A stretch of DNA of 64,000 nucleotides from Deltaproteobacteria bacterium. Its GTDB lineage: Bacteria; Desulfobacterota; Binatia; HRBIN30; CADEER01. The stretch spans positions 12,338 through 76,337 of the forward strand of contig JANRJF010000254.1 in assembly GCA_033764095.1 (NCBI GenBank), written 5' to 3'. The position numbers and the translations under genes were made by a program. Below the pieces are notes generated by a model. It was not told where the DNA came from, made no database searches, and worked only from the letters and a program-made list of their open reading frames with translations. Shown here piece by piece: positions 16,278-61,604 of the stretch (position 1 is the first letter of the stretch; each line of letters begins with the position of its first letter).

Positions 16278-17600
16278 ATGACCGACTACCAGCGCACGCT
16301 CGCCTGGCTGTACGCGCTCGAGGCGGCCAAGGGCATGGACTTCAAGCTCGAGCGCGTGGCGCTGGCGTTGCGTCGCCTCGGCGATCCGCACCGTCGCTAC
16401 GCCGTGCTGCACGTCGCCGGGACGAACGGCAAGGGCTCGGTGGCGGCGTTGCTCGACGCGGTGCTGCGCGCTGCCGGACGGCGCGTCGGGCTCTACACCT
16501 CGCCGCATCTGGTCGACCTCGCCGAGCGCATCCAGGTCGACGGCGGGCCGGTCCCGCACGAACAGATCGTCGCGCTTGCCGACGAGGTACGCGCGGCGAC
16601 CAGCGGGCGCGGCATCGACCTCACCTTCTTCGAGATCCTGACCGTGATGGCGTTCCTCGCCTTCGCGCGAGCTGGTGTCGACGCGGCGGTGGTGGAGGTC
16701 GGGCTCGGTGGCCGGCTCGACGCGACCAACGTCGTCGATCCGCTCGTCGCGGTGATCACCAGCATCGGGCTCGACCACACCGAGTGGCTGGGCGACACGC
16801 GCGCCGCGATCGCGGCGGAGAAGGGCGGTATCATCAAGGCGGGGCGTCCACTGGTGCTCGGCCGGTTGGATGCCGAGGCTGCCGCCGTGCTGGGCGAGAT
16901 GGCGAGCCGGCAGGGCGCGCCGGTGATCGCTCCGCACGATGCGGCGGTCGGCGGCGAGCGCTATGCCGTGGGCGCCGCCGGCAGCGGCTTCGATTTCGAC
17001 GGGCTCGGCTGGACGTTCCGCGGCCTGCCGCAGGTGTTGCGCGGCGCCCATCAGCTCGACAACGCCGGCACCGCGGTGGCGGCGCTGGCAGCGGCACGCG
17101 AGGTGCTCGGGATCGACGAGGTGGCGTTGCGCAGCGGCCTCGCCCGTGTGCACTGGCCGGGGCGGCTGGAGATCGTCGCGCGCGCGCCGCTGACGGTGGT
17201 CGACGGGGCGCACAATCCGGACGGGGCGGCGGCACTGGCGCGCGAGCTGCCGCGACTGCTTGCCGGGCGGCCGCTGCACCTGCTGTTCGCGGTCATGGGC
17301 GACAAGGACTGGCGTCCGATGGTCGAGATCCTCGCGCCGCTGTGCCGCGGCGTCGTGGTGACCGAGGTGCGGCCGCCGCGCGGCGCGCCGTGTCGTGACG
17401 TCGCCGCGGCGTTCGCGCCGTACTGCGCGGTGACGGCGGAGCCGGATCTGCGGCGCGCCTGGCAGCTGGTGCGCGGCAACGCCGGGGCGGCGGGCGCGGT
17501 GGTGGCGGCTGGCTCGCTGTTCCTGGTCGGCGCGCTGCGGGAGCTCGGCCTGCACGCGACCGATGCCGCGGCGACCGGCTCGGGGACGGCGCATCCGTGA
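16278..17600 (+). CDS. folC: Folylpolyglutamate synthase / dihydrofolate synthase
   Basis: P-loop HVAGTNGKGS, TSPHL, EVGLGGRLDATNV, DGAHNPDG. Confidence 0.88.
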   Translation: MTDYQRTLAWLYALEAAKGMDFKLERVALALRRLGDPHRRYAVLHVAGTNGKGSVAALLDAVLRAAGRRVGLYTSPHLVDLAERIQVDGGPVPHEQIVALADEVRAATSGRGIDLTFFEILTVMAFLAFARAGVDAAVVEVGLGGRLDATNVVDPLVAVITSIGLDHTEWLGDTRAAIAAEKGGIIKAGRPLVLGRLDAEAAAVLGEMASRQGAPVIAPHDAAVGGERYAVGAAGSGFDFDGLGWTFRGLPQVLRGAHQLDNAGTAVAALAAAREVLGIDEVALRSGLARVHWPGRLEIVARAPLTVVDGAHNPDGAAALARELPRLLAGRPLHLLFAVMGDKDWRPMVEILAPLCRGVVVTEVRPPRGAPCRDVAAAFAPYCAVTAEPDLRRAWQLVRGNAGAAGAVVAAGSLFLVGALRELGLHATDAAATGSGTAHP

Positions 17601-20020
17601 TCCGCCGCCTGCGGCGCGCCGCGAATCGGCGTGCGGCACGGCGGCGTCGGCGGGCGAGCCGACTGGCCGGCGTCGCGTTGATCGGGCTGCTCGGCGTGGT
17701 GTGGCCGGCGCGCGCGCAGCCGCCCTCCCCGACTCCGACGCCGCGGCAGGCGAGCGAGCAGGAGATCACCATCGACGCCGAGTCGCTCACCTACGACACC
17801 AAGGGGGAGAGCCTCTCGGCCACTGGCGACGTCCTGATCCGGCGTGGCGACACGACGTTGCGCGCCGACACCGTGCAGTTCAACCGCCGCACCAGCGAGG
17901 CGCGGGCGTTGGGCGACACGGTGTTGACCAGCCCGCAGGTCGAGATCCACGCCGACTCGATGTTTCTCGACCTCGAGAACGAGACCGGCGACCTGGACGA
18001 AGCGACGATCGTCTCCGACCGACTCGGCTATTCGCTGAGCGGCCGGCGCGTTCAGAAGGGGCTCGGTCAGCGCTATCGGATCGAGCGCGGGCGCTTCACC
18101 ACCTGTCTCTGCGACGACGGCGGCAAGCCGGACTGGAGCATCGCGGGCGACACGCTCGACGTCGAGGTGGACGGCTACGGCTCGTTGGAGGGGGGCACGT
18201 TCAACGTCCTCGACGTGCCGGTGATCTGGCTGCCGAAGGCCGCCTTCCCGGTCTTCCGCGAGCGCCAGTCTGGCCTGCTCTTCCCGCGCATCGGTATCTC
18301 CAACCGGCGCGGGTTCCAGCTGCTGCAGCCGTACTACTGGGCGATCGACAAGACGCAGGATGCGACGATCAGCTTCGACCTCGAAACCTCGCTGCGTGTC
18401 GGCCTGATCGGGGAGTACCGCTACGCCTTCAGCCCGCAGACCGACGGCGCGTTCCAGGTCGGCTACTTCGCCGACGTCTTCCGCGGCGCGACGGACAACG
18501 TGCGGGTCCCCAAGGGCGCCGACCCCAACACGCCGGAGAATCGCTGGGGCATCCTCGGCCACCACGCGCAGGGCGTGCCGCCGGTGGACGGGATGAGCGG
18601 CTACGTCGACCTGCTGCTGGTCGGCGATGACCTGTTCCTGCGCGAGATGAACACCTTCGGCATCGACGAGCAGCAGGACGTGGCGCTGCGCACCATCCCG
18701 TTCACCACTTCGCAGGCCGGCATCCTGCAGGAGTGGGAACGCATCGCCCTGCAGACCGAGGTCATCTACTACCAGGACCTGGTCGGCCCGATCGTCGAGG
18801 AGCCGACGCCGCTCGGGACGCCGCCGGTCGGCCCGGGCACGCCGACGCCGACGCCGGTGCTGGGTCAGGACGAATCGCTGGTCATCCAGCGGCTGCCGGA
18901 GATGCGCGTGCAGGGGCAGAAGCAACTCGGCTGGGGGCTGATCGGCGACCTGAGCGGCAGCATGACCAACTTCCAGCGTTCGCTCGGCCTGGCCGGTTTC
19001 CGCGGCGACATCAAACCGTCGGCCGAGCTGCGCCTGCCGCTCGGCAGCGCCTTCTTCGGCGCGGTGCGCGGCGCCTTCCGCGAGACCTTCTACGGGTTGA
19101 CCGAGAACCAGATGAGCGGCGGGTTCACCGGCGCCGACCCGAGCCTCCCCCTGATCGACCTGCCGAGCGGCAGCAGCCGCGAGCTCTTCGAGCTGCATGC
19201 GAACGTCGGCACCGAACTGGCCCGCATCTACGACTTCCCGTATTTCGGCCTCGACAAGCTGCGCCACACCATCGAGCCGCAGGTCGAGTACCTCTACGTC
19301 CCGCCGGTCGATCAGGGCGATCTGCCGGTGTTCGACGGCATCGATCGCATCAACAAGCGCAGCCTGATCACCTACGGCTTTGCCACCCGCCTCCTGGCGC
19401 GATCCGACGTCAACGCGGAGGGGAAGGGAGCCGGCGAGGTGTACGAGATCACCCGCCTGTCGCTGGCGCAGAGCTACGACGTGCTGCGTGACATTCCGCC
19501 GACCACCAACATCAACGACGTCACCGGTCAGCCGATCAACCCGGCGACCGGCGACCACTTCTCCGACATCGACGTCACATGGCGCATCAACCCCGGTCCG
19601 GTGACGCAGGTGCGCGCCTACGCGACCTACGACACCAGTGAGAACCTGCTGTCGTCGGCCACCGTCGGGGTGCGGCTGAAGGAGCCGATCCGCGCCCTCG
19701 ACCCGAGTGCCAAGCCGCGCCTGTTCACGCGCGCCAGCTTCACCGTCGAGTACCGCTACATCACCGACAACATCCTGCAGTTCCTCGACTCGACCGTGGC
19801 GCTGCCGGTCACCGATCGGATCGCCGGCCTGTATGCCATCCGCTACGACATCCTCAATGACCGCTTCCTGGAGAATTACGTCGGCATGCGGTTGCTGTCG
19901 TCGTGCGACTGCTGGGCGCTGAACCTCGGATTCACGCAGACCAGCAACCCGAACGAGTTGCAGTTGCAGGCGCAGTTCACGCTCGCCGGCTTGGGCGCGG
20001 CGCCGGTCGCCGGCTTCTGA
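17597..20020 (+). CDS. lptD: LPS-assembly outer-membrane protein LptD
   Basis: Basic N-terminus plus signal sequence, OstA-like N-terminal domain (ADSMFLDLENETGDL, RFTTC) and a long beta-barrel-like C-terminus. GTG start overlaps the folC stop. Confidence 0.85.
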   Translation: MIRRLRRAANRRAARRRRRASRLAGVALIGLLGVVWPARAQPPSPTPTPRQASEQEITIDAESLTYDTKGESLSATGDVLIRRGDTTLRADTVQFNRRTSEARALGDTVLTSPQVEIHADSMFLDLENETGDLDEATIVSDRLGYSLSGRRVQKGLGQRYRIERGRFTTCLCDDGGKPDWSIAGDTLDVEVDGYGSLEGGTFNVLDVPVIWLPKAAFPVFRERQSGLLFPRIGISNRRGFQLLQPYYWAIDKTQDATISFDLETSLRVGLIGEYRYAFSPQTDGAFQVGYFADVFRGATDNVRVPKGADPNTPENRWGILGHHAQGVPPVDGMSGYVDLLLVGDDLFLREMNTFGIDEQQDVALRTIPFTTSQAGILQEWERIALQTEVIYYQDLVGPIVEEPTPLGTPPVGPGTPTPTPVLGQDESLVIQRLPEMRVQGQKQLGWGLIGDLSGSMTNFQRSLGLAGFRGDIKPSAELRLPLGSAFFGAVRGAFRETFYGLTENQMSGGFTGADPSLPLIDLPSGSSRELFELHANVGTELARIYDFPYFGLDKLRHTIEPQVEYLYVPPVDQGDLPVFDGIDRINKRSLITYGFATRLLARSDVNAEGKGAGEVYEITRLSLAQSYDVLRDIPPTTNINDVTGQPINPATGDHFSDIDVTWRINPGPVTQVRAYATYDTSENLLSSATVGVRLKEPIRALDPSAKPRLFTRASFTVEYRYITDNILQFLDSTVALPVTDRIAGLYAIRYDILNDRFLENYVGMRLLSSCDCWALNLGFTQTSNPNELQLQAQFTLAGLGAAPVAGF

Positions 20021-20085: not shown

Positions 20086-20125
20086 GAAAAAGAAAAGGCC
20101 CGGAGGATTGCTCCTCCGGGCCTTT
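20086..20125. terminator. Bidirectional intrinsic terminator between lptD (+) and P1 (-)
   Basis: 11-bp perfect stem ggcccggagga/tcctccgggcc (20097-20107 / 20112-20122) with a 4-nt loop. It is flanked by aaaaagaaaa on one side and ttt on the other; the minus-strand reading has the longer T tract. Confidence 0.75.
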
Positions 20126-20146: not shown

Positions 20147-21382
20147 TCAGGGCAGCGGAATCTTGATCTGGTCGCCCTGCTCGCGCGAGCCCTGGAACTG
20201 GACGTTGGCCGAGGTGGTGTAGTAGCCGCCCGCCTCGGAGAACCAGGTCTCGTTCAGGATCGCCAGGATGCCGTTCGCGTCGTAGCCATCGACGTTCGGG
20301 CCGGCCACCGAGCGCAGGCGCGAGGTACCGGTGATCGTGCCCTCGACACCGACCGAGAAGATCGAGAAGGCATCGCCCTCTTCACCCGGGCGGGTGTCGA
20401 TGTCCGACAGCGGCGTCTCCTTGTAGCACTGCACGCTGGTCGAGGTGGAGAAGCGCTGCTCGAACTCGTTGTAGACCAGGAACTGGACCACTGCCGGAGC
20501 GCCGTTGGCGGTCTGGGTCAGGAAGTCGTTGGCGCACGGCACCAGCACCAGGTCGCTGTTCACCTCGCTGACGCCGTTCGCGGTCACCACGTCGGCGCCG
20601 TCGAAGAAGTGGTTCAACGTCAGGATGTTCGGGCAGCCGACGAAGCGGGCCGGATCGACGAATTCGTTGAACACACCGTACTCGGCCTCGGGGCCGCCGA
20701 TGTTGAGCACGTTCGGGTTGGCGTCCTGACGGCCCTCGATCGCCTTGATACCGATCGCGGTGTACTTGCTCGCATCGATACCCTGGCTGTTCTCGGCCGG
20801 GGACTCGACGATCGTCGCCTCGCCCTTGAGGTCGTTGCGGTCGGCCGGCAGCTCGGTGGTGACGTCGACCTGGATGCAGAGCAGCTCACCAGTGAACGGC
20901 ACCTCGGTGACCGGCGGGATGTTGCCCTCGTTGAACTGCGGCGGGCTGCCCTGGCCCGGCGTGCTGGCCAGCGGCAGGCTCGACAGGCCCTCGTTGATCG
21001 ACCACGAGAGCGGCTGGCGCTTGGTCAGCGTCAGGCGGAAGTCGGTCTCCTGCCAGCCCGGGACGCACAGGCCGCCGGTCGGGCAGACGTCGCGGAAGTC
21101 CTGATCCGTGCAGATCGTCGACGGCGCGTTGCTGCAGTGGCCGTTGGTGTTCGTATAGAAGCAGTGCACCTTGGTCAGGAACTCCGAGGTGTTGGTCAGC
21201 TGCACCAGCGTGTCGACGCCGTCGGTCGCGTCGACCTTCAGCAGCGGGTAGTACACGATCGCCGCCGACTCGTTGGTCGTCACACCGGTCGGGTCGATGA
21301 CCCGCGCGCTGGCCGTTTCGACCGCCAGCAGGATCGCGGCACAAGCGAGCGCCCCCCGCCAGATCCCCATCTTCGTGCTCAT
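20147..21382 (-). CDS. Secreted Cys-containing protein, uncharacterised paralog family, P1 (type A)
   Basis: GGAAAGGAGA RBS before the ATG at 21382 and a signal-peptide-like N-terminus (...ETASA/RV). It carries all family motifs (DTLVQLTN, HCFY, WQETDFRLTLTKRQP, PPVTEVPFTGELLCIQ, NDLKGEA, SKYTAI, CPNILTLNHFFDGA, LVPC, VYNEFEQRFSTS..C). Confidence 0.8.
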   Translation of the reverse strand: MSTKMGIWRGALACAAILLAVETASARVIDPTGVTTNESAAIVYYPLLKVDATDGVDTLVQLTNTSEFLTKVHCFYTNTNGHCSNAPSTICTDQDFRDVCPTGGLCVPGWQETDFRLTLTKRQPLSWSINEGLSSLPLASTPGQGSPPQFNEGNIPPVTEVPFTGELLCIQVDVTTELPADRNDLKGEATIVESPAENSQGIDASKYTAIGIKAIEGRQDANPNVLNIGGPEAEYGVFNEFVDPARFVGCPNILTLNHFFDGADVVTANGVSEVNSDLVLVPCANDFLTQTANGAPAVVQFLVYNEFEQRFSTSTSVQCYKETPLSDIDTRPGEEGDAFSIFSVGVEGTITGTSRLRSVAGPNVDGYDANGILAILNETWFSEAGGYYTTSANVQFQGSREQGDQIKIPLP

Positions 21383-21439
21383 CACTAGTCTCCTTTCCTC
21401 ACCCGTGGAGAACACCATTGCTCGCTATCCCAATCCCGC

Positions 21440-22645
21440 TCAGAAGTTCTCGGGGATGGTGATGGTGTCCACCACCGGCCCGCCAGGCAGGTTCACAGTT
21501 GCATCGTAACGGTTGCCGGCCTGCTGCAGGTTCCAGGCAGCGCGCGACACCGTGCCGGTCTCAAGGTAGTGGTACTCTTCGGCGACACCGATCACGCCGC
21601 CGTCGAGGGCGACCGGGCTGATGCGCGTGAAGGCGCTGCCGGTGCCGAGCGTGCCGACCGCGAAGACGCTGTTCTTGCTGCAGAAGCCGGCGGCGCCCTG
21701 GATGCACTGGGCGTCGCTCACGCAGGGGTCGCCGCTCACCGTGCAGGTGCCGGTCGGCGCGTCGATGTCGGCCAGGCGGGTCGTCTCGTAGCACTCAACC
21801 GTGGTGCTGGCGGAGAAGACCTGCTCGAGCTCGTTGACGATCGCGAACTGGACCGTGACCTCGCCCGGGAGCTGGTTCTCGAAGTCCTCCGAGCAGGGCA
21901 CCAGCGTCAGGTAGGTGCGGATCGGGCAGTCGCCGTCGGTGCAGTTCGCCGAGTTGAACTCCTCGACCACCGGGTCGGGCGTGCCGTCGACGAAGTGGTT
22001 CAGGTAGAGCTGGTTCGGGCACGAGTTGTACTCGCCGTCATGTTCCGGCGTGTTGTCGAGCAGGAGCTCGTTGGCCGGGGCGTCGCCGGCCAGATCCGGG
22101 TTGGCCAGGATGGCGATCGCGTTGTGCTTGCTGACGTCGCCCGAGCTGGCGCGAATCACCGTCTCGCCCTTGAGGTTGTTGCCGCCGAACGGCGTGCCCG
22201 AGGCGTCGATCTGGACGCACTTGAGCTCGCCATCGAAGCCCGGCGGAACCGGCGGAATGGCGCCCGGATCGATACCGGCGCCGCCCGTGCCGAACATGTC
22301 GGCCGGGTTCACCGGACGGCCCGCGCTGACCACCCAGTGGGTCGGCTGCTGGCGGGTCAGCCAGATGGTGAAATCGGTGACCTGCCAGAGCGGGTTGCCG
22401 AAGAAGTCGGGCGCGCCGTTCACGTAGAAGCAGTGCGCGTGCACCATGTTATTGCTGGTGTTCGTGACCTGGATGATGGTGTCGCGGCCCAGCCCGCCGA
22501 TGTCATACACCACCTTCGGAAACACCAGCACCGATCCGCTGACGTCCGTCGAAACCTCTGCCCGCGTAACCGAGGCGAACGCCAAGGCGCTCACCAGCAC
22601 TCCGCAGAGGCTCCACACACAGCGCATCCCCAGTGCCTTGCTCAT
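21440..22645 (-). CDS. Secreted Cys-containing protein, uncharacterised paralog family, P2 (type B)
   Basis: GAAAGGAGA RBS, ATG at 22645, and a signal peptide ending VTRA/EV. Close paralog of P5 (VLVFPKVV, DTIIQVTNT, AHCFYVNGA, PLWQVTDF..LTRQQPTHW, GELKCVQ, LTLVPCSEDF, NELEQVFS). Confidence 0.8.
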   Translation of the reverse strand: MSKALGMRCVWSLCGVLVSALAFASVTRAEVSTDVSGSVLVFPKVVYDIGGLGRDTIIQVTNTSNNMVHAHCFYVNGAPDFFGNPLWQVTDFTIWLTRQQPTHWVVSAGRPVNPADMFGTGGAGIDPGAIPPVPPGFDGELKCVQIDASGTPFGGNNLKGETVIRASSGDVSKHNAIAILANPDLAGDAPANELLLDNTPEHDGEYNSCPNQLYLNHFVDGTPDPVVEEFNSANCTDGDCPIRTYLTLVPCSEDFENQLPGEVTVQFAIVNELEQVFSASTTVECYETTRLADIDAPTGTCTVSGDPCVSDAQCIQGAAGFCSKNSVFAVGTLGTGSAFTRISPVALDGGVIGVAEEYHYLETGTVSRAAWNLQQAGNRYDATVNLPGGPVVDTITIPENF

Positions 22646-22803
22646 CACCCGTCTCCTTTCGTGGCGGAGAAGAATCCTCGCTCTCCCATCCCGCCTCTCA
22701 ACCGTGTCCGACTATCTTGAGTGTCGACATTCGCGCAAACACAACGGCAGGCCGTTCTCCGGCCGGTCGAAAGCTGCCTCCAGTTACTTGAGACCCCTTC
22801 AGT

Positions 22804-23014: not shown

Positions 23015-24397
23015 ATGAGGGTGCGTATTGGGTTGGTGTGTGGTCTGGGATTGGCGGTGGCCGGGCTGAGCGGCTGCGGCATGTTCGCGAAGAAGCCGGC
23101 GGCGCCGGAGAACGCGGCGCAGAAGGGGCTGGCGGCGGCCGCGGCGGCCAGCAAGCCGGCGCCGATGGGCTACACGCTGGCGAACAACGGTTTGCCGCAG
23201 GGCATCATCTGGAAGAGCCAGATGGCGCTCGGCGACGTGAACGCCGACGGCTTTCCCGACATCGGCGTGATCTCCCGACTGGCCGACGGGCCGTGGATCT
23301 TCGTCGGCGACGGCAAGGGCAACTGGACCCCGTTCGCCAACGGCCTGCCGCGCGAGCCGTTCTGCGGCGGCGGCATGGACTTCATGGACGTCAACAAGGA
23401 CGGGATCATGGACGCGGCGATCTCCGACCACTGCAAGGGGGTCTTCGTCTTCCTCGGCGACGGCAAGGGCAACTGGCGCACCGCATCGTCCGGCCTGCCG
23501 ACGATCGGCTCCGAGGACGTCGCGCTGGGCGACTTCAACAATGACGGCTGCCCCGACCTGGCGTCGGTGGCGGCGGCGGAAGAGGGCGTGCGCGCCTTCA
23601 CCGGCAACTGCAAGGGCGTCTGGAAGGAGAGCTCGAAGGGTCTGGCGCTGACCGATTGGGGCAACGCGGTCGAGCTCAAGGACGTCAATGCCGACGGGAA
23701 TCTCGACGTCATCGCCGCCTACGCGGCCGGCCCGCGCGTCTGGCTGGGCGATGGCAAGGGCGGCTGGACCGAGGCGTCGCAGGGGCTGCCGGCACCGCAG
23801 ATCCACGGACTGTACTGGGGCCTCGATGTCGGTGACCTGAACGGCGACGGCAAGCTCGACATCGTCTCCGGCTCGCAGATGCCGCCTTTGCCCGAGGGCT
23901 GCGGCGCGCCCGGCGCGCCGACCTGCGCCGGCGGCGGCGTCGAGGCATTCCTGCAGCAGCCGGACGGCTCGTGGCAGTTCGCCAACGCCGGCTTCCTGCC
24001 GATGAACTCGCTCGGCGTCGCCATCGGCGACCTGAACAACGACGGCAAGCCGGACGTCACCGCGGTCGGCAAGCGCGCGCTCGACGAGATCGGCGGCGTC
24101 TACGGCGTCTATACCTATCTGGGCGACGGCAAGGGCAACTGGCAGCCGGTGATCCCCGAGGGCCTGCCGCAGACCGGCAAGGAACGGAGCTGGGGCGTCG
24201 GTATCGCCGACATCAACCGCGACGGCATGAACGATATCGCGGTCGCCTTCGGCGATGTCGTGTCCCCCACCTGGCGTTCGGGCGCCAAGGGCAAGGACAA
24301 GGAAGCCAAGGAAGCCGAGGCGAAGGCGCCAGCCGCGCCGACGCGCGGCAAGTTCGGCGAGATCGGCGTCTGGTTCGGCAAGCCGACGCCGCGCTGA
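23015..24397 (+). CDS. FG-GAP/VCBS-repeat lipoprotein (predicted 7-blade beta-propeller)
   Basis: Lipobox LSGC at the N-terminus. Seven DxNxDGxxD Ca-loop repeats (DVNADGFPD, DVNKDGIMD, DFNNDGCPD, DVNADGNLD, DLNGDGKLD, DLNNDGKPD, DINRDGMND), each followed by a GDGKGNW-type strand. Lys/Ala/Glu-rich tail. Confidence 0.85.
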   Translation: MRVRIGLVCGLGLAVAGLSGCGMFAKKPAAPENAAQKGLAAAAAASKPAPMGYTLANNGLPQGIIWKSQMALGDVNADGFPDIGVISRLADGPWIFVGDGKGNWTPFANGLPREPFCGGGMDFMDVNKDGIMDAAISDHCKGVFVFLGDGKGNWRTASSGLPTIGSEDVALGDFNNDGCPDLASVAAAEEGVRAFTGNCKGVWKESSKGLALTDWGNAVELKDVNADGNLDVIAAYAAGPRVWLGDGKGGWTEASQGLPAPQIHGLYWGLDVGDLNGDGKLDIVSGSQMPPLPEGCGAPGAPTCAGGGVEAFLQQPDGSWQFANAGFLPMNSLGVAIGDLNNDGKPDVTAVGKRALDEIGGVYGVYTYLGDGKGNWQPVIPEGLPQTGKERSWGVGIADINRDGMNDIAVAFGDVVSPTWRSGAKGKDKEAKEAEAKAPAAPTRGKFGEIGVWFGKPTPR

Positions 24398-24500
24398 CCC
24401 AGTTTCGCGGGCCGTCCGTCCGCCGCTCGGCGGGCGGACGGCCCATCCCAACGCGGCGCCCCGCGTTGATTCCCCTCCGGCGAGCGACGATGATGCCGGA

Positions 24501-26240
24501 GTGAGACGCCTCGCCGGCTACCTGCGCCGCTATCGGGCGCGCTATGCCGCCGGCGGCGCCTGTCTGTTGCTCACCGCCACGCTCGCCATGGCGGTGCCCT
24601 ACCTGCTCAAACGCGCCGTCGACGCGATCGAGCGCGGCGCGCCGTTCGCCACCGTGGCGCAGTTCGCGCTGGCGATCGTCGCGATCGCCGTCGTCCAATC
24701 GGTGGTGCGCACCTTGTCGCGGGCCCTGATCTTCAACGTCGGGCGCGACGTCGAGCACGATCTGCGCGGCGACCTCTTCGCCCACCTCGAGCGGCTGCCG
24801 GTGGCCTACTACCAGCAGCAGCAGACCGGCGACCTGATGTCGCGCCTGATCAACGACGTCACCGCCATCCGGATGCTGCTCGGCGTCGGCGTCCTCAACC
24901 TGGTCAACACCCCCATCTACTACGTGTACGGCGTCGGCATCATGCTGACGATCGATCCGGTGCTGACGCTGATGGCCCTGCTGCCGTTCCCCATCCTGCT
25001 GTGGGTGGTGAAGCGCGTCAGCCGCACCTTGATGGAGCAGACGCTGCGCGTGCAGGAAGGCCTGGCGGCACTCAGCAGCGCGGTGCAGGAGAACATCAGC
25101 GGCATCCACGTGGTGAAGGCCTACGACGCCGAGACCGTTGCGGTGCAACGCTTCGCCCAGCTCAACGACGAGTTCAGCCGGCAGAACGTCGCGCTCGCCA
25201 AGGTGCGCGGCCGGCTGATGCCGCTGATGCGCCTCGCCGCCGGCTTCGGCACGCTGATGGTGCTGTGGGTGGGCGGCTGGCAGGTGATCGCCGGGCGCAT
25301 CGGCCTCGGCGACCTGGTCGCCTTCATGGGCTACCTCAACCTGCTCGCCTGGCCGACCATGGCGCTCGGCTGGATGCTGTCGATCCTGCAGCGTGGCCGT
25401 GCCGCGTTGCTGCGCCTCGAGCACATCTTCGCCACCGAGCCGGCGATTGCCGACCCGCCCGACGCGATGCCGCTGCCGGCGGTCGCCGGCCGCGTCGAGT
25501 TCCGCAACGTGTCGTTCGCCTATCCCGGGCGCGGCAACGGGCACCCGGTGGTGTCCAATGTCTCGTTCACGCTCGAGCCCGGCGAGAAGCTCGCCATCGT
25601 CGGGCGCACCGGCGCCGGCAAGAGCTCGCTGGTGCAACTGCTGCCGCGCCTGTTCGACGTCAGCGAGGGCGCCGTGCTGCTCGACGGCCGCGACGTCCGC
25701 ACGCTGCCGCTGGCGCAACTGCGCGGCGCGATCGGCTTCGTGCCGCAGGATCCGTTCCTGTTCTCCACCCGCATCCGCGACAACGTCGCCTTCGCGCTCG
25801 ACGCGCCCGACGAGGCGGCGGTGCGCCGCGCCGCCGCGGTCGCCGGCGTGGCCGACGACATCGAGGCGTTTCCGCGCGGCTACGACACCGTCGTCGGCGA
25901 GCGCGGCATCACGCTGTCGGGCGGCCAGAAGCAGCGCCTGACGTTGGCGCGCGCGGTGGCGCCGGCGCCGCGGGTATTGGTGCTCGACGACGCGCTGTCG
26001 TCGGTCGACACGCGCACCGAGCACGCCATCCTGCAGGGGCTGCGCGAGGTGATGGCGGGCAAGACCAGCATCGTCATCGCGCACCGCGTCTCGACCATCA
26101 TGGACGCCGACCACATCGCGGTGCTCGACGGCGGGCGCATCGTCGAGCTCGGTGACCACGCGGCGCTGCTGGCGCGCGATGGGCTGTACGCCGACCTCTA
26201 CCGCCAGCAGCAGCTCGAAGACGAGATCGAGACGCTGTGA
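24501..26240 (+). CDS. ABC exporter, fused permease/ATPase (MdlA/MsbA-like half-transporter)
   Basis: Six-TM ABC_membrane region, Walker A GRTGAGKSS, signature LSGGQKQR, Walker B VLVLDDA. GTG start is the only in-frame start before the first TM helix. Confidence 0.85.
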   Translation: MRRLAGYLRRYRARYAAGGACLLLTATLAMAVPYLLKRAVDAIERGAPFATVAQFALAIVAIAVVQSVVRTLSRALIFNVGRDVEHDLRGDLFAHLERLPVAYYQQQQTGDLMSRLINDVTAIRMLLGVGVLNLVNTPIYYVYGVGIMLTIDPVLTLMALLPFPILLWVVKRVSRTLMEQTLRVQEGLAALSSAVQENISGIHVVKAYDAETVAVQRFAQLNDEFSRQNVALAKVRGRLMPLMRLAAGFGTLMVLWVGGWQVIAGRIGLGDLVAFMGYLNLLAWPTMALGWMLSILQRGRAALLRLEHIFATEPAIADPPDAMPLPAVAGRVEFRNVSFAYPGRGNGHPVVSNVSFTLEPGEKLAIVGRTGAGKSSLVQLLPRLFDVSEGAVLLDGRDVRTLPLAQLRGAIGFVPQDPFLFSTRIRDNVAFALDAPDEAAVRRAAAVAGVADDIEAFPRGYDTVVGERGITLSGGQKQRLTLARAVAPAPRVLVLDDALSSVDTRTEHAILQGLREVMAGKTSIVIAHRVSTIMDADHIAVLDGGRIVELGDHAALLARDGLYADLYRQQQLEDEIETL

Positions 26241-28054
26241 GCACCACCGACGAGCAGCGCGAGGCCGACCTCGGCAAGGCCTACGACGCGCGCCTGATGC
26301 GCCGGCTGTGGGTGTACATCCGCCCGTGGCGCGGCTGGTTCTGGGCCGCCATGCTGTGCCTGCCGCTCACCTCGCTGTGCTCGCTGGCGCAGCCCTACCT
26401 GCTCAAGGTCGCGATCGACACCTACATCGCACAGGGCGACCGCGCCGGCCTGCTGCGCGTCGGCGGGCTGTACGGCCTGGCGATGATGGTCGAGTTCGGC
26501 TTCCTCTACCTGCAGTACACGCTGATGATGCTGGTCGCGCAGCGCAGCCTGGCGGCGCTGCGGCTCGACCTGGTGGCACACCTGCAGCAGCTGCCGGCGC
26601 GCTTCTTCGACCGCAATCCGGTCGGCCGCCTGGTGACGCGGCTGACCACCGACGTCGACGTGATCAACGAGATGTTCGCCGCCGGCGCGCTGACCATCCT
26701 GATGGACGTCGCGACGCTGTTCGGCATCGTCGGCATCATGCTGGTGATCGACTGGCGGCTGGCGCTGGTGACGCTGGCGGTCGCGCCCGTGGTCGGCGTC
26801 GCGGTGAACTACTTCCGTATCAAGGCGCGCCACACCTATCGCGAGATCCGCGACCGCCTGGCGCGGCTCAACGCCTACCTGCAGGAGTCGCTGGCGGGCA
26901 TGACGGTCGTGCAACTGTTCGCCCGCGAGCGGCAGAGCCAGGCGCGCTTCGACGCGCTCAACGGCGACTTCCGCAACGCCAACCATGCCGCCAACATCTA
27001 CGAGGCGGCGCTGTTCTCGATCATCGAGGCGGTGAGCTCGATCACCATGGCGGTGATCATCTGGTTCGGCGGCTACGAGATCCTCGCCGGCGCGCTCGCC
27101 TTCGGCACCCTGGTCGCCTTCATCGAGTACATGCAGCGCTTCTTCGTGCCGATCCGCGACTTCTCGACCAAGTACGCGGTCATGCAGTCGGCAATGTCGT
27201 CGGCCGAGCGCATCTTCGAGCTGCTCGACCAGCCGGTGCCGATCGCCAGCCCGGCCGCCCCGCGTCGGCCCGAGGCGGTACGCGGCGGCATCGAGTTCGA
27301 GCACGTGTGGTTCGCCTATCAGGGCGAGGACTGGGTGTTGCGCGACGTCTCCTTCCGCATCGCGCCGGGTGAGAAGGTGGCGCTGGTCGGCCACACCGGC
27401 TCGGGCAAGACGACGATCATCAAGCTGCTCAACCGCACCTACGACGTGGCGCGCGGCCGCGTGCTGATCGACGGCGTCGACGTGCGCGAGTGGGACCTCG
27501 CTGCGCTGCGCCGCCACATCGGCGTGGTCTTGCAGGACGTCTTCCTGTTCAGCGGCTCGGTGGCCAGCAATCTGACCCTCGACCGCGCCGGCGTCGAGCG
27601 CGACGCCGCCGTCGCCGCGGCGGTGACCGTGCACGCCGACCCGTTCATCCGCCGCCTGCCGCGCGCCTACGACGAGCCGGTTCGCGAGCGTGGCAACAAC
27701 CTCTCGGTCGGCCAGCGCCAGCTGCTGTCGTTCGCCCGCGCCCTCGCCTACCAGCCGACCATTCTGGTGCTCGACGAGGCGACCTCCAGCGTCGACACCG
27801 AGACCGAGATGCTGATTCAGGACGCCCTGCGCCACCTGCTCGCCGGACGCACCGCGCTGGTCGTCGCGCACCGCCTGTCGACCATCGAGCACGCCGACCG
27901 CATCATGGTGCTGCACGCCGGCGAGCTGCGCGAGAGCGGCACGCACGCCGAGCTGCTGGCGCGGCGCGGGCTCTACTACCGCCTGTACCAGCTGCAGTAC
28001 GCGGCCCGCGCCGGGGCGGCGGCGAGCGCGCCGCGGCCGGCCGCCGCCTCATGA
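26237..28054 (+). CDS. ABC exporter, fused permease/ATPase (MdlB-like partner)
   Basis: Walker A GHTGSGKTT, signature LSVGQRQL, Walker B ILVLDEAT. 4-nt overlap with the preceding half-transporter suggests a heterodimer. Confidence 0.85.
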   Translation: MSTTDEQREADLGKAYDARLMRRLWVYIRPWRGWFWAAMLCLPLTSLCSLAQPYLLKVAIDTYIAQGDRAGLLRVGGLYGLAMMVEFGFLYLQYTLMMLVAQRSLAALRLDLVAHLQQLPARFFDRNPVGRLVTRLTTDVDVINEMFAAGALTILMDVATLFGIVGIMLVIDWRLALVTLAVAPVVGVAVNYFRIKARHTYREIRDRLARLNAYLQESLAGMTVVQLFARERQSQARFDALNGDFRNANHAANIYEAALFSIIEAVSSITMAVIIWFGGYEILAGALAFGTLVAFIEYMQRFFVPIRDFSTKYAVMQSAMSSAERIFELLDQPVPIASPAAPRRPEAVRGGIEFEHVWFAYQGEDWVLRDVSFRIAPGEKVALVGHTGSGKTTIIKLLNRTYDVARGRVLIDGVDVREWDLAALRRHIGVVLQDVFLFSGSVASNLTLDRAGVERDAAVAAAVTVHADPFIRRLPRAYDEPVRERGNNLSVGQRQLLSFARALAYQPTILVLDEATSSVDTETEMLIQDALRHLLAGRTALVVAHRLSTIEHADRIMVLHAGELRESGTHAELLARRGLYYRLYQLQYAARAGAAASAPRPAAAS

Positions 28055-42205: not shown

Positions 42206-42394
42206 TCAGCGGCGCAGGTGGCGGTACTGGTCGGACTTTTCGCGACGCAGCGCGGAGAGACGGTTGTCGGCGTCACGTTGGATGCGCGACTTGCGATGCA
42301 GGAGGGCGTAGAGCACCAAGGCGCCGACGGCGACCCCCACCCCGACCATCGGGTGGGTGGACACTAAATCGACGAACGGCTTGAGTTGGTCCAT
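42206..42394 (-). CDS. Small single-pass membrane protein (hypothetical)
   Basis: 62 aa with one TM helix (MVGVGVAVGALVLYALL) and a basic tail. GC3-rich frame. Confidence 0.35.
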   Translation of the reverse strand: MDQLKPFVDLVSTHPMVGVGVAVGALVLYALLHRKSRIQRDADNRLSALRREKSDQYRHLRR

Positions 42395-42595
42395 GCGCGT
42401 CCCCTGCGAAGGCAGAGGCTAGCGCCGTGTTCCGCGTGCTCAACCGGGAAATTCCGAAATCGACCAGTCTGCAGCAAAGCGTCGCATCGCTGCATCGCTT
42501 GCGTCCGAGATGGACGATATGCGGCCGCGCACGCGCCATTCTGTGCGTTGCAAAGCGAGCAAGGGTGTCGCATATCCTCGCAACACTTCATCTCC

Positions 42596-45169
42596 ATGGG
42601 GCGTGGTGACGCGACGGGCGCTGACCCGAGCAGGGGCACGGGCGACGCGGTGAGCGCCAGTCGATCTCGGCCTGTGTTGCTGCGCCGGCTGGCGCTGGCG
42701 GTCCTGGTGGCCGGTTTGTCGAGCTTCGCCTCCGGCCTCGCGTCCGCTCAGGAGGTGCGCGGCGACGCCAACTGTGACGGAGTGGTGAGCCAGGCCGACC
42801 TGCCGGCGCTCAGCTCCGCCCTGTTCCTCGGTAGCGTCTGTGCGACCGCCGACGTCAACCAGGACGGGCGACTGTCGGCCGCCGACCTGGTGGCGCTGAT
42901 CCAAGTGCTGGCCGCGTCGCCCACGCCCAGCCCGAGCGCGACCGCCAGTGCCACGCCGAGCGGGGTGGCAACAGCGACCGCGACGCAGAGTCCCACGTCG
43001 CCTTTGCCGAGTGCCACCGCCAGCGCGACCGCGAGTGCCACCGGGGTCGCCACCGCGACCGCGACATCGCTGGCGACCGCGACGGCGACCGCGACGCGCA
43101 CTGCCGAGGCGACGGCGACCTCGATGGCAGCAACGGCGACGGCGACCTCGGTGGCCGCAACGGCGACGGCGACCTCGGTGGCAACCACAACCGCCAGCGA
43201 CACGCCGACGCCGCTAGCCACCGACACCGGCACGCTCGTCGCCAGCCCGACGCCGACCGCAACCGCCAGCGTGCCGACCGAAACGCCGCTCGAGGCGACC
43301 GCCACCCCGGAGCGCAGTCCCACCGCCACATCCGATCCCAGTCCGACCGAGACCGGGACGCTGCACCCGACCGCTACCGCGACCTCGACGGCGAGTGCAA
43401 CCGGATCGGCGACGCCGACCGAAGTGGTGGCGCCGACGAGCACGGCGACCGGCTCGCCGAGCGCGACCGCGCCGCCGCCGTCGATGACACACACCGCCTC
43501 ACCGACCAACTCGGCGCTTCCGAGCGCCAGTCCGACCGAGACCGTCAGTCCGACGCGAACGCAGAGTGCGACCCGCACCGCGAGCGCGACGCGGACGCCG
43601 ACCGAAACGCGCACGCCCACCGTCACCCGCACCGGCACACTGCCGGCGACCGACACTCCCACCGCGACCGGCTCCCCGACGCGTACGGAGACGCGCACGG
43701 CGACGGTGACGCGTAGCGCGACGCCGGCGTCCACGCTGACGCCGACCAGGACCGCGACCGAAACGCGCACGCCGACCGAGCCGGCATCCCCGACCCGCAC
43801 GCACACGGTTCCGGCGAACGCTACCGAGACGCGCACCTCGACGCCGACCCGCACCGAGACCGTCACCCGAACCGAAACCGAGACGCGCACGCCGGTGCCG
43901 CCGACGGCGACGCGCACGCCGAGCTTCACCGGCACCGTCACCCGTACGGCCACCTCGGCCCCGTCGGCGAGCCCGACGCGCACTGAGACGGCCTTGCCGG
44001 CCAGCGTCACGGCGACCCCGACACTGACCCCATCGCGAACGGCGACTGCCAGCTTCACTGGTACGCAGACCCGCACCGAGACGCCGACGCGCACCCCGAC
44101 CGCGACGCGCACCGATACGCCGCTGCCGCCGCCTACCGCCACCGGCACGCCGCTGCCGTCAGAAACCGCGACCCGCACCGGGACGGCGACGCGCACCGAT
44201 TCGCCCAGCCGCACGCCGACTCGCACCGCGACGTTGACGCCCACCGGCACAGAGACGCGAACGCTGACGCCAACGCGCACCATCACGCCGACGCCGAGCG
44301 CGACCAACACGTTGACGCCGATCTTCTCCTTGACGCCGACGCTGACCCGCACGCTGACGCCGACCGGCACGCCGACGCGCACGCAGACCAACTCCCCGAC
44401 GCCGACCTTCAGCTTCACGTTCGTGCCGACGCGCACGTCGACGATCACACGGACGCCGACCATCACCCGCACCGCGACGCGAACCTCGACGATCACGCCC
44501 ACGCCGACCGTCACCCGGACGCCGACACCGACTTCGGCCCTGGCCGGTCCGCGGGTCAGCTTCGCCGGCGCGATCTCACAGGATGGTTGTCAGTCGTGCT
44601 GCCAGTTTATTTGTCAGCTGACGCCAACCCCGACACCCATCATCGAGAATGGCCGCGAGGTCTTCGTCCGCGACGTCGGCCAGTTCCTCTTCGTCGTCGA
44701 AGGCCAGCGCGGACCCTCCAACCAGAACCCCGGTCTCAACGTGAACCCCGACGGAACCGATCGCGGCGACCTGCAGATCCTGGTCAGCCGCTCGACCGGC
44801 GCCATCGACGATCCGGCCGGATTCGGCAGCGCCGCCGTCTGCGACATGGGCCCGCCGCCGCTGCCATTCGGCGGCGTGCCGGGCGTCAACCCGCCGGTGT
44901 TCCTCCCCGGCGACGCGATCACCCATGCCATTCAAGACATGGAGTGTCGTTTCACCGCGATTCCACTCAGCGCGATCAGCGGTGCCTGCACGCGCAAGTC
45001 GAACGGCGACTTTGGATTCATCAGCAACCAGACGCGTACACAATACTGCTACCAGGTGCCGATGACCGGCGCCTTCCAGGTCGGCGACACGCTGGTGTCG
45101 GTGCAGTTGCGCGACGTCGGCGGCAACATCGGGCCGACCAAGGAATTCATCATCCGCGTCCTGCCCTGA
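42596..45169 (+). CDS. TR-A: secreted giant protein with dockerin-like Ca-loops, about 540 aa of Thr-rich period-2 low complexity, and a conserved unnamed C-terminal domain
   Basis: One uninterrupted frame. It contains a signal peptide (LALAVLVAGLSSFASGLASAQE), GDANCDGVVSQADL...ADVNQDGRLSAADLVALI, long T-x-T-x tracts, and a C-terminal domain shared with TR-B. An alternative GTG start lies at 42651. Confidence 0.8.
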   Translation: MGRGDATGADPSRGTGDAVSASRSRPVLLRRLALAVLVAGLSSFASGLASAQEVRGDANCDGVVSQADLPALSSALFLGSVCATADVNQDGRLSAADLVALIQVLAASPTPSPSATASATPSGVATATATQSPTSPLPSATASATASATGVATATATSLATATATATRTAEATATSMAATATATSVAATATATSVATTTASDTPTPLATDTGTLVASPTPTATASVPTETPLEATATPERSPTATSDPSPTETGTLHPTATATSTASATGSATPTEVVAPTSTATGSPSATAPPPSMTHTASPTNSALPSASPTETVSPTRTQSATRTASATRTPTETRTPTVTRTGTLPATDTPTATGSPTRTETRTATVTRSATPASTLTPTRTATETRTPTEPASPTRTHTVPANATETRTSTPTRTETVTRTETETRTPVPPTATRTPSFTGTVTRTATSAPSASPTRTETALPASVTATPTLTPSRTATASFTGTQTRTETPTRTPTATRTDTPLPPPTATGTPLPSETATRTGTATRTDSPSRTPTRTATLTPTGTETRTLTPTRTITPTPSATNTLTPIFSLTPTLTRTLTPTGTPTRTQTNSPTPTFSFTFVPTRTSTITRTPTITRTATRTSTITPTPTVTRTPTPTSALAGPRVSFAGAISQDGCQSCCQFICQLTPTPTPIIENGREVFVRDVGQFLFVVEGQRGPSNQNPGLNVNPDGTDRGDLQILVSRSTGAIDDPAGFGSAAVCDMGPPPLPFGGVPGVNPPVFLPGDAITHAIQDMECRFTAIPLSAISGACTRKSNGDFGFISNQTRTQYCYQVPMTGAFQVGDTLVSVQLRDVGGNIGPTKEFIIRVLP

Positions 45170-47063: not shown

Positions 47064-47098
47064 TGCGCCGGCGTCGAGACGAGAGAAGGAGAAGGGCG

Positions 47099-48247: not shown

Positions 48248-48291
48248 CGGGTCGCATCTGTAGCGCGTGGCTTCCTGAAGGAGGAGAACCC

Positions 48292-49386: not shown

Positions 49387-49440
49387 GTTGGGACGGTGGG
49401 TGACGAGATGAAGCGCGCAGGCAGGGAAAGGAGTCACGAG

Positions 49441-50829: not shown

Positions 50830-51216
50830 ATGGCAGCGAAGCGAATCCTGGTCGTCGAGGACAACTTGGACAATCGTCGTATCCTCGTCTACCGCCTCAA
50901 GCGGATCGGCGAGTTCGAGATCGTCGAAGCGAGCAACGGCGAGGAGGCGCTCACCATCGTGCAGACCCCACCGCCGCCCGATCTGATCTTCATGGACCTG
51001 AAAATGCCGGTCATGGATGGATGGGAGGCGACCAAGAAGATCCGTCAGCTCGAGTTCGGGAAGGGCATTCCGATCATCGCGTTGACCGCGCAGGCGATGG
51101 CGGGGGACGAGCAGAAGGCACTGGCTGCCGGCTGCGACGACTACCTGGCGAAACCGATCGTCGATCTCAGTGTCGTGCGTACGAAGATGGAGCGTCTGCT
51201 GAGCCGAGTGCACTGA
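50830..51216 (+). CDS. Single-domain response regulator (CheY-like receiver)
   Basis: ILVVEDN, phospho-acceptor context LIFMDLKMPVMDG, ALTA, and DDYLAKP. No output domain. Confidence 0.88.
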   Translation: MAAKRILVVEDNLDNRRILVYRLKRIGEFEIVEASNGEEALTIVQTPPPPDLIFMDLKMPVMDGWEATKKIRQLEFGKGIPIIALTAQAMAGDEQKALAAGCDDYLAKPIVDLSVVRTKMERLLSRVH

Positions 51217-51312
51217 GGCGAGCCGCAGGGCGCGACTGGGCGGGGGCAGGAGCGGCGAGCGGGAGTTGGCTCGCGTGACAAGTTGTCCGGCGCTGACGGG
51301 CCGGATGACGCG

Positions 51313-53544
51313 ATGAGGAGATCTCGGCAGGCAGCGTCGGGTCGTTGGGCGTGGGTTGCGATCCCGCTGCTGGCGATCTGTGTGGGTGGCGGCCCGCTGC
51401 AAGCGGCCAGCGCGCTGTGCGAGGCGGGCGATGCGCGGACGCGGGTCGGGCTGGTGGTCGATGCCCTGTTCAGCGGCGGAGCCTGCGACGCGAACGGCGA
51501 CGGCGGGACCTCGGCGGCCGACCTGACCGCGGCGTGGAGTGAGCCGGCAGCGACGCCGACGGCCACGCCGAGCGCCACAGGGCCGGCGACACTCACCGCG
51601 ACGGCGACTGCCAGCGGGACGAGCCTGCCGGCGACGCCCGAGGCCACTGCCACGCCGACCGCTCCGTCGCCAAGTCCGACCGCGGTCGCGCAGGTGACCG
51701 CCAGCCGGACGGTGACCGCGACGCCCGTGCCGAGCGCGACGGCGAGCGCAACGCCTACCCTGGACGCCAGCCCCGGAGCGTCCGCTTCGGCGACGCCGAC
51801 GGCAACCGAGACCCCGACCGCCGCGGCAACCGAAACGGCGACCCTGGTGGATGCGGAGACTGAGACGCCGACCGCGCTGCCGACCGGAACGGCCAGCAGC
51901 ACGCTGACTCCAACCGTCGGCGCGCCGAGCGCGAGCCCCACGGCCGTGCCTACTGCAACCGTTGAAGCGACGCCGGTCGACTCCGCGACGGCAACCCCAA
52001 CGCGGACGGCGACCCATACCGCAACGGCCATCCCGACGCTGACAGCGACCCCGACTCGATCGCCAAGCTCAACCGCCAGCGCTTCTCCGACGCGAACCGC
52101 GACACGAACAGTGAGCGCGTCCCCCAGTGCGAGTGCGACGCGGACCGGCAGCGCGACGCGCACGCGCACGCCGACAACTGGTCCCACCGCCACGGCGTCT
52201 CAGAGCCCGACGCGGACCGCCACGGCGGTTGCCACGCTCACACCGACCCGCACGATCACCGGCACGCGGCCGGCAACGCCCACCCGCACCGCCACTGCCG
52301 CCGCGTCCCCGACCCGCAGCAGCACTCCCACCCGCACTCACAGCCCGACTCTCGCGGCGAGCGCCACGCGCACCTCGACGGTGACCCGGACCAGCAGCCC
52401 GACACGGACCGTCACCCAGGCCGCCAGCCACACACCGACGCGCAGCCCTTCTCCTACACGCACTGCGACCGCACCGATCGGTCTGCCGGGCACCGCAACG
52501 CAGACCCCGACCCGTAGCGCGTCGGTGACGCGGACGGCGACCTGGACGCGCACGCCAAGCGCCGCGCACTCCGCCTCGCCGACGACCACGGCCACGCGTA
52601 CGGGGACCGCCACCCGCACGCTGACCTACACCGCTGGCCCGTCGCCGACCCGTACCGGCACGGCGACCGGTACGGCAACCCTCGCCCCGAGCTCGACGCG
52701 TACGCCCACGCCAACGCCGACCGCTTCGGTGACCGCTACACACGTCCCCACCGGAACGCCGACGCACCCGCCGACCGCGTCGCCCACCGTCACGCCGACG
52801 CCAACCGCGTCAGCCAGCCGCACGCGCACGGGCACGCGAACGCCGACGCCGACGCGCACCGGCAGCGCGACCCAGACCGCCACCGCCACCGGCACGGCGA
52901 CCATCACGCGGACGCCAACGCGCACCGCCACCGGCACCCCGGCGCCCACCAACACTCCGCGGACAATCGGCGGCGAGATCACCGCCTTTGGCGTGGCGCG
53001 CGCCGACGGCCAACCGGTGATGACCATCGGTCCGCAGGACGACGGCTACCTGACGTTCGTCCGCCCGCCGAGCGGCTTCATCATCTACATCGAAGCAAAG
53101 CGCGGTCTCAGCGGACTGGCCGTGGGCTCGGAGACGTTTGCCTCGGACCCCAAGGATCCGAACGTGCTGCCCGATCTGCAGGTGCTCGTGTCACGGCCGC
53201 TCGGCAACGGCAGCACTGCGGTGTGCGACATCTCGCCGCCTGTCGGCGGCGTTCCGGCCGTCGTCCCACCGACGTTCGGCGGCTCGCAGGCGGTCAGCAA
53301 CGCGATCAACGATTTCTCGTGCCGCTTCGACGCGCGTGGCAGCTCGATGCAGGCCTGCACGCGCGACGGCTTTTCCGCCTACACGTTCACCGAGCCGAGC
53401 TCGACCATCCAGTTCTGCACCAGCCCCGGTATCGGCACCGAGCTCGCCTTCCCGCTCGGGGACACCATCGTCACCGCGCGTGTGCGCGACGTTGCCGGCC
53501 AGCCCGGCCACGCAAAGAGCATCGCGATCCGCGTGCTCGAGTGA
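51313..53544 (+). CDS. TR-B: secreted giant protein with one dockerin-like Ca-loop, about 470 aa of Thr-rich period-2 low complexity, and the same conserved C-terminal domain as TR-A
   Basis: Signal peptide ([23 protein letters not shown]), [14 protein letters not shown], and long T-x-T-x tracts. The C-terminal domain aligns with TR-A ([45 protein letters not shown]). Confidence 0.8.
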
Positions 53545-59625: not shown

Positions 59626-59634
59626 CGGCCCGCC

Positions 59635-61558: not shown

Positions 61559-61604
61559 CCGCCCGGTTTACTGTCTCCAGACCGTCTGGTAGGGCTCGCC
61601 CGTT

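Follow-up and report, generated by a model that had tools for sequence, protein, structure and literature searches.

We analyzed a 64,000-nucleotide stretch of DNA (hereafter the window) from a Deltaproteobacteria bacterium of the Binatia lineage (assembly GCA_033764095.1, contig JANRJF010000254.1, positions 12,338 to 76,337), with a focus on two related genes of the minus strand at positions 20147-22645, named P2 and P1. The window has a G+C content of about 70%. A tblastn search with these two open reading frames (ORFs), together with a listing of the ORFs, identified six paralogues, P1 to P6, and their starts were placed using an AAGGAG ribosome-binding site located 6-8 nt before the ATG in six out of six genes. 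The first gene, P2 (21440..22645, minus strand), encodes a 401-aa protein of the clade that we call B, with a predicted Sec signal peptide cleaved after SVTRA. The second gene, P1 (20147..21382, minus strand), encodes a 411-aa protein of clade A, with a predicted Sec signal peptide cleaved between ETASA and RV. These assignments combine the ORFs, the ribosome-binding sites and the tree described below. The 57-nt spacer between the two genes (21383..21439, minus strand) holds the ribosome-binding site of P1 (GGAAAGGAGA), and a scan of this spacer for an intrinsic terminator found none. By contrast, a strong intrinsic terminator with a 14-bp stem, 9 G-C pairs and a T tail is located 22 nt past the P1 stop codon (20094..20125, minus strand) and marks the end of the operon. 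Since a terminator lies 3' of P1 and none lies between P2 and P1, the two genes form a bicistronic operon in which B precedes A. P2 and P1 share one reading frame with a stop codon between them, and the same holds for P5 and P6. We also observed that the initiation regions of P2 and P1 are near-identical (GAAAGGAGAC[G/T][G/A]GTGATGAGCA; 21383-21400 and 22646-22663, minus strand) and that both proteins start with MS[KT]. This likeness may date back to the ancestral duplication or represent a common translational signal.

The second locus (45579-50712, plus strand) is an array of four genes, P3-P4-P5-P6, defined from the ORFs, the alignment, the tree and the ribosome-binding sites. It begins with P3 (45579..47063), a divergent 494-aa member of clade B that is the first gene of a BABA array, followed by its clade A partner P4 (47099..48247, 382 aa). 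P5 (48292..49386, 364 aa), a clade B protein and the closest window paralogue of P2 (45% identity), is followed by its clade A partner P6 (49441..50712, 423 aa). The spacers measure 35 nt for P3-P4, 44 nt for P4-P5 and 54 nt for P5-P6. In the three window pairs P2-P1, P3-P4 and P5-P6, a clade B gene is thus directly followed by a clade A gene on the same strand. All six genes have a strong ribosome-binding site, and the six translations all carry a canonical Sec signal peptide with an AxA-type cleavage site. We considered whether the proteins could be lipoproteins and discarded this, as no canonical lipobox was found and the cysteine of the signal peptide lies in the hydrophobic region before the AxA site. 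The G+C content at third codon positions was 0.81-0.83 for P3-P6, compared to 0.90-0.94 for P1, P2 and the housekeeping genes around them, and the G+C of the region falls to 0.65-0.66 at 45579-50712. The low values of P3-P6 could be due to differences in expression or codon usage, or to these genes having been acquired more recently.

A six-way alignment was then used to examine the motifs reported in a preliminary description of the locus, and all of them were recovered. FPKVV, DTIIQ[VI]TNT, AHCFYVNGA, PLWQVTDF..LTRQQPTHW and IDPG..PPV.PGF are common to P2 and P5, [LM]VYNEFEQRFST[SN] is common to P1, P4 and P6, and SIFSVGVEGTITG..R.R is common to P1 and P6. The 54-57 nt spacers given there likewise correspond to those of P5-P6 and P2-P1. 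The same description took a Cys-rich insertion as a mark of type A, and this did not hold. The insertion, which in P1 has four cysteines and sits between the HCFY and WQETDF motifs, is also present in the clade B protein P3. Among the larger set of proteins described below, this loop has four cysteines in 84 of the 94 clade A members and two to four in 23 of the 98 clade B members (P3 and 22 others). The Cys-rich loop is typical of clade A but not diagnostic. P3 carries 25 cysteines in total; its C-terminal extension of about 100 aa (46760-47060) is rich in C..D.DC-type motifs and gave a weak match to the myxobacterial Cys-rich repeat TIGR04201 (E=0.005).

To place the six proteins in a wider family, homologues were collected from protein databases, genomes and metagenomes. 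P2 has more than 1100 homologues in a 90%-clustered database, all named hypothetical and nearly all from Candidatus Binatia metagenome-assembled genomes or from bins that are probably mislabelled, and a profile built from the six paralogues retrieved 1746 cluster representatives at 50% identity. A pattern scan anchored on B-type motifs, with one genome per species, gave 80 loci in 42 genomes. A family hidden Markov model (HMM) applied to these loci detected 219 family ORFs, of which 202 near-full-length proteins were aligned for a tree; up to 13 family genes were present in the sampled loci of one genome. Clustering by the unweighted pair group method with arithmetic mean at k=3 separated the 202 proteins into three groups, each being an exact bipartition of the neighbour-joining tree: clade A (94 proteins including P1, P4 and P6; bootstrap 100/100), clade B (98 proteins including P2, P3 and P5; 95/100) and clade C (10 shorter proteins; 100/100). 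The proposal of two subtypes is therefore borne out by the phylogeny, with C as a minor addition, and P3-P4, regarded as a third and more divergent pair, indeed places P3 in clade B and P4 in clade A. The core motifs of the family are FPKV, DT.IQ.TN, HC.Y, W..TDF..LT..QP, F.GEL.C, EY..CP, L.PC and NE[FL]EQ.FS...C. P1-P6 scored 412-574 bits with the family HMM, and all of them possess these motifs and the five invariant cysteines. Other residues are invariant in both clades, namely N271, E272, E274, S278, H217, D55, T56 and N62 (P2 numbering). Since both clades keep the same invariant residues, neither of them looks, at the sequence level, like a degenerate or dead copy. Overall, the protein family fits no described family and is essentially Binatia-specific, while the fold class of its domains is ordinary, and it split long ago into the paralogous clades B and A.

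The order of the two genes was strictly conserved. In the 80 B-anchored genome loci, we observed 47 BA, 11 BABA, 10 BAC, 3 BABABA and 1 BBA arrays; the other arrays corresponded to contig ends or to frameshifted fragments in long-read assemblies. The position in the array was predicted almost perfectly by clade membership. A second scan, this time anchored on A-type motifs, yielded 80 metagenome loci. Wherever 400 nt or more lay upstream of an A gene in these loci, a B gene preceded it, and the 13 A genes found alone were all located at a contig edge. The genome loci contain 91 BA junctions, to which the metagenome loci add about 60. The B-then-A transcription order initially noticed for P2-P1 and P5-P6 thus extends to other genomes, and neither the genome loci nor the metagenome loci revealed A and B genes occurring independently of one another. 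The proteins of clade C are about 350 aa long, contain exactly five cysteines and were observed only as the third gene of BAC arrays (loci L022, L023, L025, L028, L034, L039, L042, L044, L045 and L052); none is present in the window.

We then compared the divergence of the two clades across the 91 BA pairs. The pairwise B-B and A-A distances were correlated (Mantel r = 0.735, the top value of 999 permutations being 0.101), and B subclades mapped onto A subclades with an adjusted Rand index of 0.80. In BABA arrays, the genes of the first pair and those of the second pair belonged to separate, matching subclades across genomes. The spacers were tighter from B to A (median 50 nt, range -4 to 81) than from A to B between pairs (median 128 nt), and 14 of the 91 B-to-A spacers were at most 9 nt long, some of them overlapping the B stop codon. 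Duplication as a cassette, together with co-inheritance, predicts both this co-divergence and this spacer pattern. The suggestion that the genes were duplicated two at a time is well supported by these measures, and we are almost certain that a conserved B-then-A cassette was duplicated as a unit. Accordingly, the P2-P1 cassette has two more copies in the window, P3-P4 and P5-P6. It is only as a B-then-A unit that B and A are inherited, duplicated and, in some cases, fused.

Natural fusions gave further indications on the relationship between the two proteins. Three single-chain B-A fusions, P0132, P0388 and P0389 (48-63% mutual identity), consist of a signal peptide, two family modules, a dockerin, a Pro/Thr-rich (PT) linker and a C-terminal domain. 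The first module scored 221-237 bits with the clade B model against 76-91 bits with the clade A model, and the second 247-264 bits with the clade A model against 139-177 bits with the clade B model. No internal signal peptide was found in these three proteins. P0182, P0226 and P0242 are fusions of a partial B with A in the same order. Two other database proteins, P0121 and P0185, have an A module, a PT linker, an anchor-like C-terminal segment (Cys-hydrophobic-Arg-rich) and then a new signal peptide followed by a B module, so that A precedes B within one reading frame. They may represent two genes lacking a stop codon between them, or adjacent cassettes.

The cysteines follow a pattern that bears on this relationship. 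Each of clades A and B has five invariant core cysteines, and the cysteine count of the mature protein is odd in 80 of the 94 A proteins and 81 of the 98 B proteins, or about 84% of the two clades, and in all 10 C proteins. The insertions add cysteines in pairs, with one core cysteine left over. The fifth core cysteine (C285 in P2, C319 in P1) is located a few residues past NE[FL]EQxFS; of 150 unfused pairs, 144 have it in both partners. The three full fusions have another residue at this position in each of their two modules but retain the other four core cysteines, and they contain 24 cysteines in total, an even number. Because the counts are odd and the fifth cysteine has been lost from both modules only in the fusions, this residue is a candidate for an inter-chain disulfide, or for a free functional thiol. 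The simplest reading suggested by the fusions is that such a disulfide would become dispensable once the two chains are joined. We propose the B-A disulfide through the candidate fifth cysteine only tentatively, whereas the fusions and the cysteine pattern together suggest that B and A probably form a physical heteromer.

No meaningful match was obtained for the six proteins in Pfam, NCBIfam, PADLOC or PHROGs. The absence of any match to PADLOC and PHROG profiles, for all six, gives no indication of an anti-phage or phage-derived function. The presence of a signal peptide in both proteins, and their common fold, also led us to reject a toxin-antitoxin or effector-immunity pair. Searching the PDB sequences with the A profile returned no match, and the lysozyme matches obtained with the B profile (E of about 0.02-0.1) were attributed to chance. 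AlphaFold2 predicted all-beta structures for P2 (pLDDT 90.7, pTM 0.87) and P1 (pLDDT 87.2, pTM 0.85). Using Foldseek, no whole-chain structural match was found for P1 and P2 in the PDB or for P2 in BFVD, with query-normalised template modelling (TM) scores of at most 0.23, and at most 0.21 in the BFVD search. The sole consistent match at the domain level, for both P2 and P1, was TM1070 (1NC7; Foldseek probability 1.0, TMt 0.62-0.68, about 153 columns). The ASRT-like beta-sandwich superfamily, to which TM1070 belongs, has been proposed to bind small molecules or sugars and likened to the carbohydrate-binding module CBM4-2, with conserved W/H/C/N residues as its signature (PMC2739507). Matches to arrestin/VPS26, pilins, factor XIII, a Pleurotus lectin and capsid jelly-rolls were considered generic beta-sandwich noise (TM 0.08-0.23). 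Other members of the family carry, in the same chain, dockerin or EF-hand modules, PT linkers, Cys-rich repeats, beta-propellers and anchor-like segments at the C-terminus, and these additions fit an extracytoplasmic, probably surface-associated role.

The genomic context was then examined for possible partners. Neighbouring genes varied between cassette subfamilies and were mostly housekeeping genes, including those for UDP-glucose dehydrogenase, aminotransferase IV, TopA, GlnE, GshB, a Mur ligase and arginine decarboxylase. No conserved operon partner of the cassette was found across the examined loci. Given this variation and the predominance of housekeeping genes, the cassette is self-contained. 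The site orthologous to that of P2-P1 comprises two ABC exporters and an FG-GAP gene divergent upstream, the B and A genes, a convergent LptD gene, then trpA and trpB, and shows synteny in about 20 genomes; the arrangement of LptD, FG-GAP and ABC genes around B-A recurs in some 17-26 genomes other than this one. Envelope-biogenesis genes are numerous in the window (17597-20020, 23015-24397, 24255-28054, 59626-60897 and 61593-63998, all on the plus strand). These include LptD, convergent with P1, and the FG-GAP and two ABC exporter genes divergent from P2, as well as a LolC/E-like permease and a BamA gene cut by the window end.

The BABA array P3-P6 is flanked on both sides by genes for very long, secreted PT-rich proteins. 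The upstream one (42386..45169, plus strand) has a signal peptide, a dockerin (Pfam Dockerin_1), a Pro/Thr linker of about 600 aa and a C-terminal domain (CTD) of about 190 aa (CTD HMM E=3e-68). The downstream one (51283..53544, plus strand) has the same CTD (E=1.4e-74) and no Pfam match; its N-terminal segment is dockerin-like by eye only. The CTD of both proteins is without a Pfam match. The dockerin-PT-CTD tail of the upstream protein is also the tail that ends the B-A fusions P0132, P0388 and P0389, and the protein is possibly a functional partner of B/A. The surroundings of the fusion gene P0389 contained no informative neighbours. Dockerin-like modules were detected in 31 of 161 sources, mostly in a PD40 protein with two dockerins located 3-6 kb upstream of one cassette subfamily. 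This protein of about 900-1000 aa, on the same strand as the B gene, combines PD40 repeats, DUF7107 and two dockerin-like modules. It was found upstream together with UDP-glucose dehydrogenase at L012, L015, L031, L037, L040, L049 and about 20 other loci. A stand-alone response-regulator receiver of 128 aa (50830-51216, plus strand) lies between P6 and the downstream PT-rich protein, with no cognate kinase adjacent. Literature searches on Binatia with dockerins or paralogue pairs returned nothing relevant.

Taken together, the explanation that we favor, and hold to be probable, is that the P2-P1 operon and the other copies of the cassette encode a Sec-secreted, disulfide-linked B/A heterodimer. 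The proteins are all-beta chains of about 360-470 aa, built of beta-sandwich domains, exported by Sec and provided with five invariant cysteines. A single mRNA would give B and A by co-translation, in about equal amounts, and both would be exported; signal peptidase I would remove both signal peptides, and the four core cysteines of each protein would form intramolecular disulfides. The fifth cysteines (C285 in P2 and C319 in P1) would then pair in an inter-chain disulfide to give a 1:1 pseudo-symmetric heterodimer. Outside the cytoplasm, at the cell envelope or surface, this heterodimer may be a non-enzymatic module with a binding or structural role, similar to a lectin or an adhesin, and in some lineages it would be tethered via dockerin and Pro/Thr-rich stalk proteins. 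The biochemical role of the module is a guess, and a binding or structural role at the surface is a doubtful proposal that we make with more reserve than the disulfide.

The fixed order could also be observed if B and A were co-expressed without binding each other, as subfunctionalised paralogues acting on different ligands or substrates and kept adjacent by a common promoter and regulation. Each protein could function alone, given that the full set of invariant residues is kept in both clades, and the presence of clade C in BAC arrays implies a stoichiometry that is not always two. However, co-regulation alone rarely fixes gene order so strictly, with a single BBA exception for about 150 pairs. 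It also leaves unexplained the repeated B-then-A fusions into a single polypeptide and the joint loss of the odd cysteine from both fused modules, and we consider this explanation unlikely. It is very unlikely that the proteins are enzymes, such as a beta-sandwich hydrolase, a lyase or a transglutaminase-like cross-linker with a Cys/His/Glu active site, working as a catalytic heterodimer or as a catalytic-plus-regulatory pair. The odd invariant cysteine and the residues invariant in both clades listed above could supply such a site, and Foldseek did list factor XIII/transglutaminase chains, with E of about 1e-4. Nevertheless, factor XIII-like transglutaminases possess a papain-like core with a Cys-His-Asp triad, and these matches (TMq 0.13-0.14, root-mean-square deviation of about 20 Å, no Pfam match) cannot include this catalytic core, which P1 and P2 lack. 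Moreover, Pfam and NCBIfam gave no match to an enzyme family, the top structural matches included no jelly-roll glycoside hydrolase, lyase or ConA-like enzyme, and the fusions are conserved despite the absence of the fifth cysteine in both modules.

Another possibility is that the proteins assemble as subunits into a repetitive surface structure, for instance an S-layer lattice or a fibre, and that the numerous cassettes encode variant coats that serve, for example, to evade phages or predators. The number of cassettes per genome, with up to 13 family genes in the sampled loci of one of them, the diversity of the family (1746 clusters at 50% identity) and the strong ribosome-binding sites of the six window genes agree with this reading, as do the PT-rich stalks and anchor-like C-terminal segments of P0121 and P0185. 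A weak structural resemblance to the pilins and tip adhesins CfaB, CfaE and CupB6 points in the same direction, although the pilin matches reach a TM of only about 0.1. Conversely, the cassettes lie beside varied housekeeping genes, with no chaperone, usher, sortase or S-layer secretion gene next to them, they occupy conserved syntenic chromosomal sites rather than variable islands, and no repeat signature of gene conversion was seen at the DNA level. We therefore regard a coat or fibre of this type as quite unlikely.

Several observations weigh against the disulfide-linked B/A heterodimer or parts of it. Both scans used clade-typical motifs, and very divergent orphan genes could have been missed. 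Part of the Mantel correlation comes from the shared species phylogeny. P6 has an even number of cysteines (14), so that the P5+P6 pair breaks the parity rule, and the three full fusions are related, their paired loss of the fifth cysteine being probably a single evolutionary event. The link to the CTD is not general, since this domain was not found in the other 160 loci, and it is limited to the window and the fusion proteins. Finally, the functional guess draws on a generic beta-sandwich resemblance, with whole-chain TM scores that stay at or below 0.23.

We compared the B/A pair with known systems. In phycobiliprotein pairs (cpcB-cpcA, apcA-apcB and cpeB-cpeA), adjacent paralogues in a fixed order encode an obligate 1:1 heterodimer. 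By analogy, B/A would resemble them in having two ancient clades, a fixed order and a cassette duplicated into several co-diverging copies within a genome. A heterodimer has been proven for phycobiliproteins, whereas for B/A it is only inferred, and the two systems have no sequence or fold relationship, phycobiliproteins being globin-like, helical and cytoplasmic whereas the B/A proteins are secreted, all-beta and disulfide-rich. As for TM1070/ASRT (ASRAH), one domain of P2 and P1 superposes on it at the fold level, but with only 8-11% sequence identity. At the profile level, no Pfam or NCBIfam match was found, and neither the A nor the B profile gave a PDB sequence match beyond the lysozyme ones attributed to chance. 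TM1070 is moreover a cytoplasmic, single-domain homotetramer of about 120 aa, in contrast to the multi-domain, secreted, Cys-rich and paired B/A proteins. Cohesin-dockerin assemblies share with B/A extracellular beta-sandwich modules, and the family is fused to or located beside dockerin proteins with Pro/Thr linkers. However, no cohesin was matched in Pfam at E<=1 or among the top 50 PDB Foldseek matches of P1 or P2, and cellulosome-type scaffolds further differ in that no glycoside hydrolases lie near the cassettes and the Binatia host is of the Gram-negative (diderm) type. The chaperone-usher proteins CfaE, CfaB and CupB6, secreted tandem beta-sandwiches like B/A, are in the Foldseek list of P1, but with TM scores of about 0.1-0.15, and no usher or chaperone genes were found in the 161 loci. 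Nothing suggests for B/A the donor-strand exchange of these systems.

Binatia are abundant, uncultured bacteria of soils and sediments and, to our knowledge, their cell biology is essentially unknown. The B/A family is large, several cassettes being present per genome, and lacks a solved relative or an entry in Pfam or NCBIfam, yet its AlphaFold2 folds are confident, which makes it a candidate for a new curated family or pair of domains of unknown function. What makes it interesting is the pattern and not a demonstrated mechanism: the strict B-then-A rule offers a clean, testable case of an obligate paralogue pair, and the two mature proteins, the one candidate inter-chain cysteine in each of them and the natural fusions provide experimental handles. 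A more ambitious proposal, which we hold to be rather improbable, is that the B/A heterodimer forms the core of a phylum-specific extracellular assembly system, with disulfide-locked heads serving as receptors or cargo for dockerin-bearing Pro/Thr stalks. If true, this would amount to a modular surface scaffold, cellulosome-like or S-layer-like, in a diderm soil bacterium, in which the paralogous cassettes would give different specificities. The link between the cassette and the dockerin/PT stalks, if true, would point to a novel type of surface architecture in a major environmental phylum.

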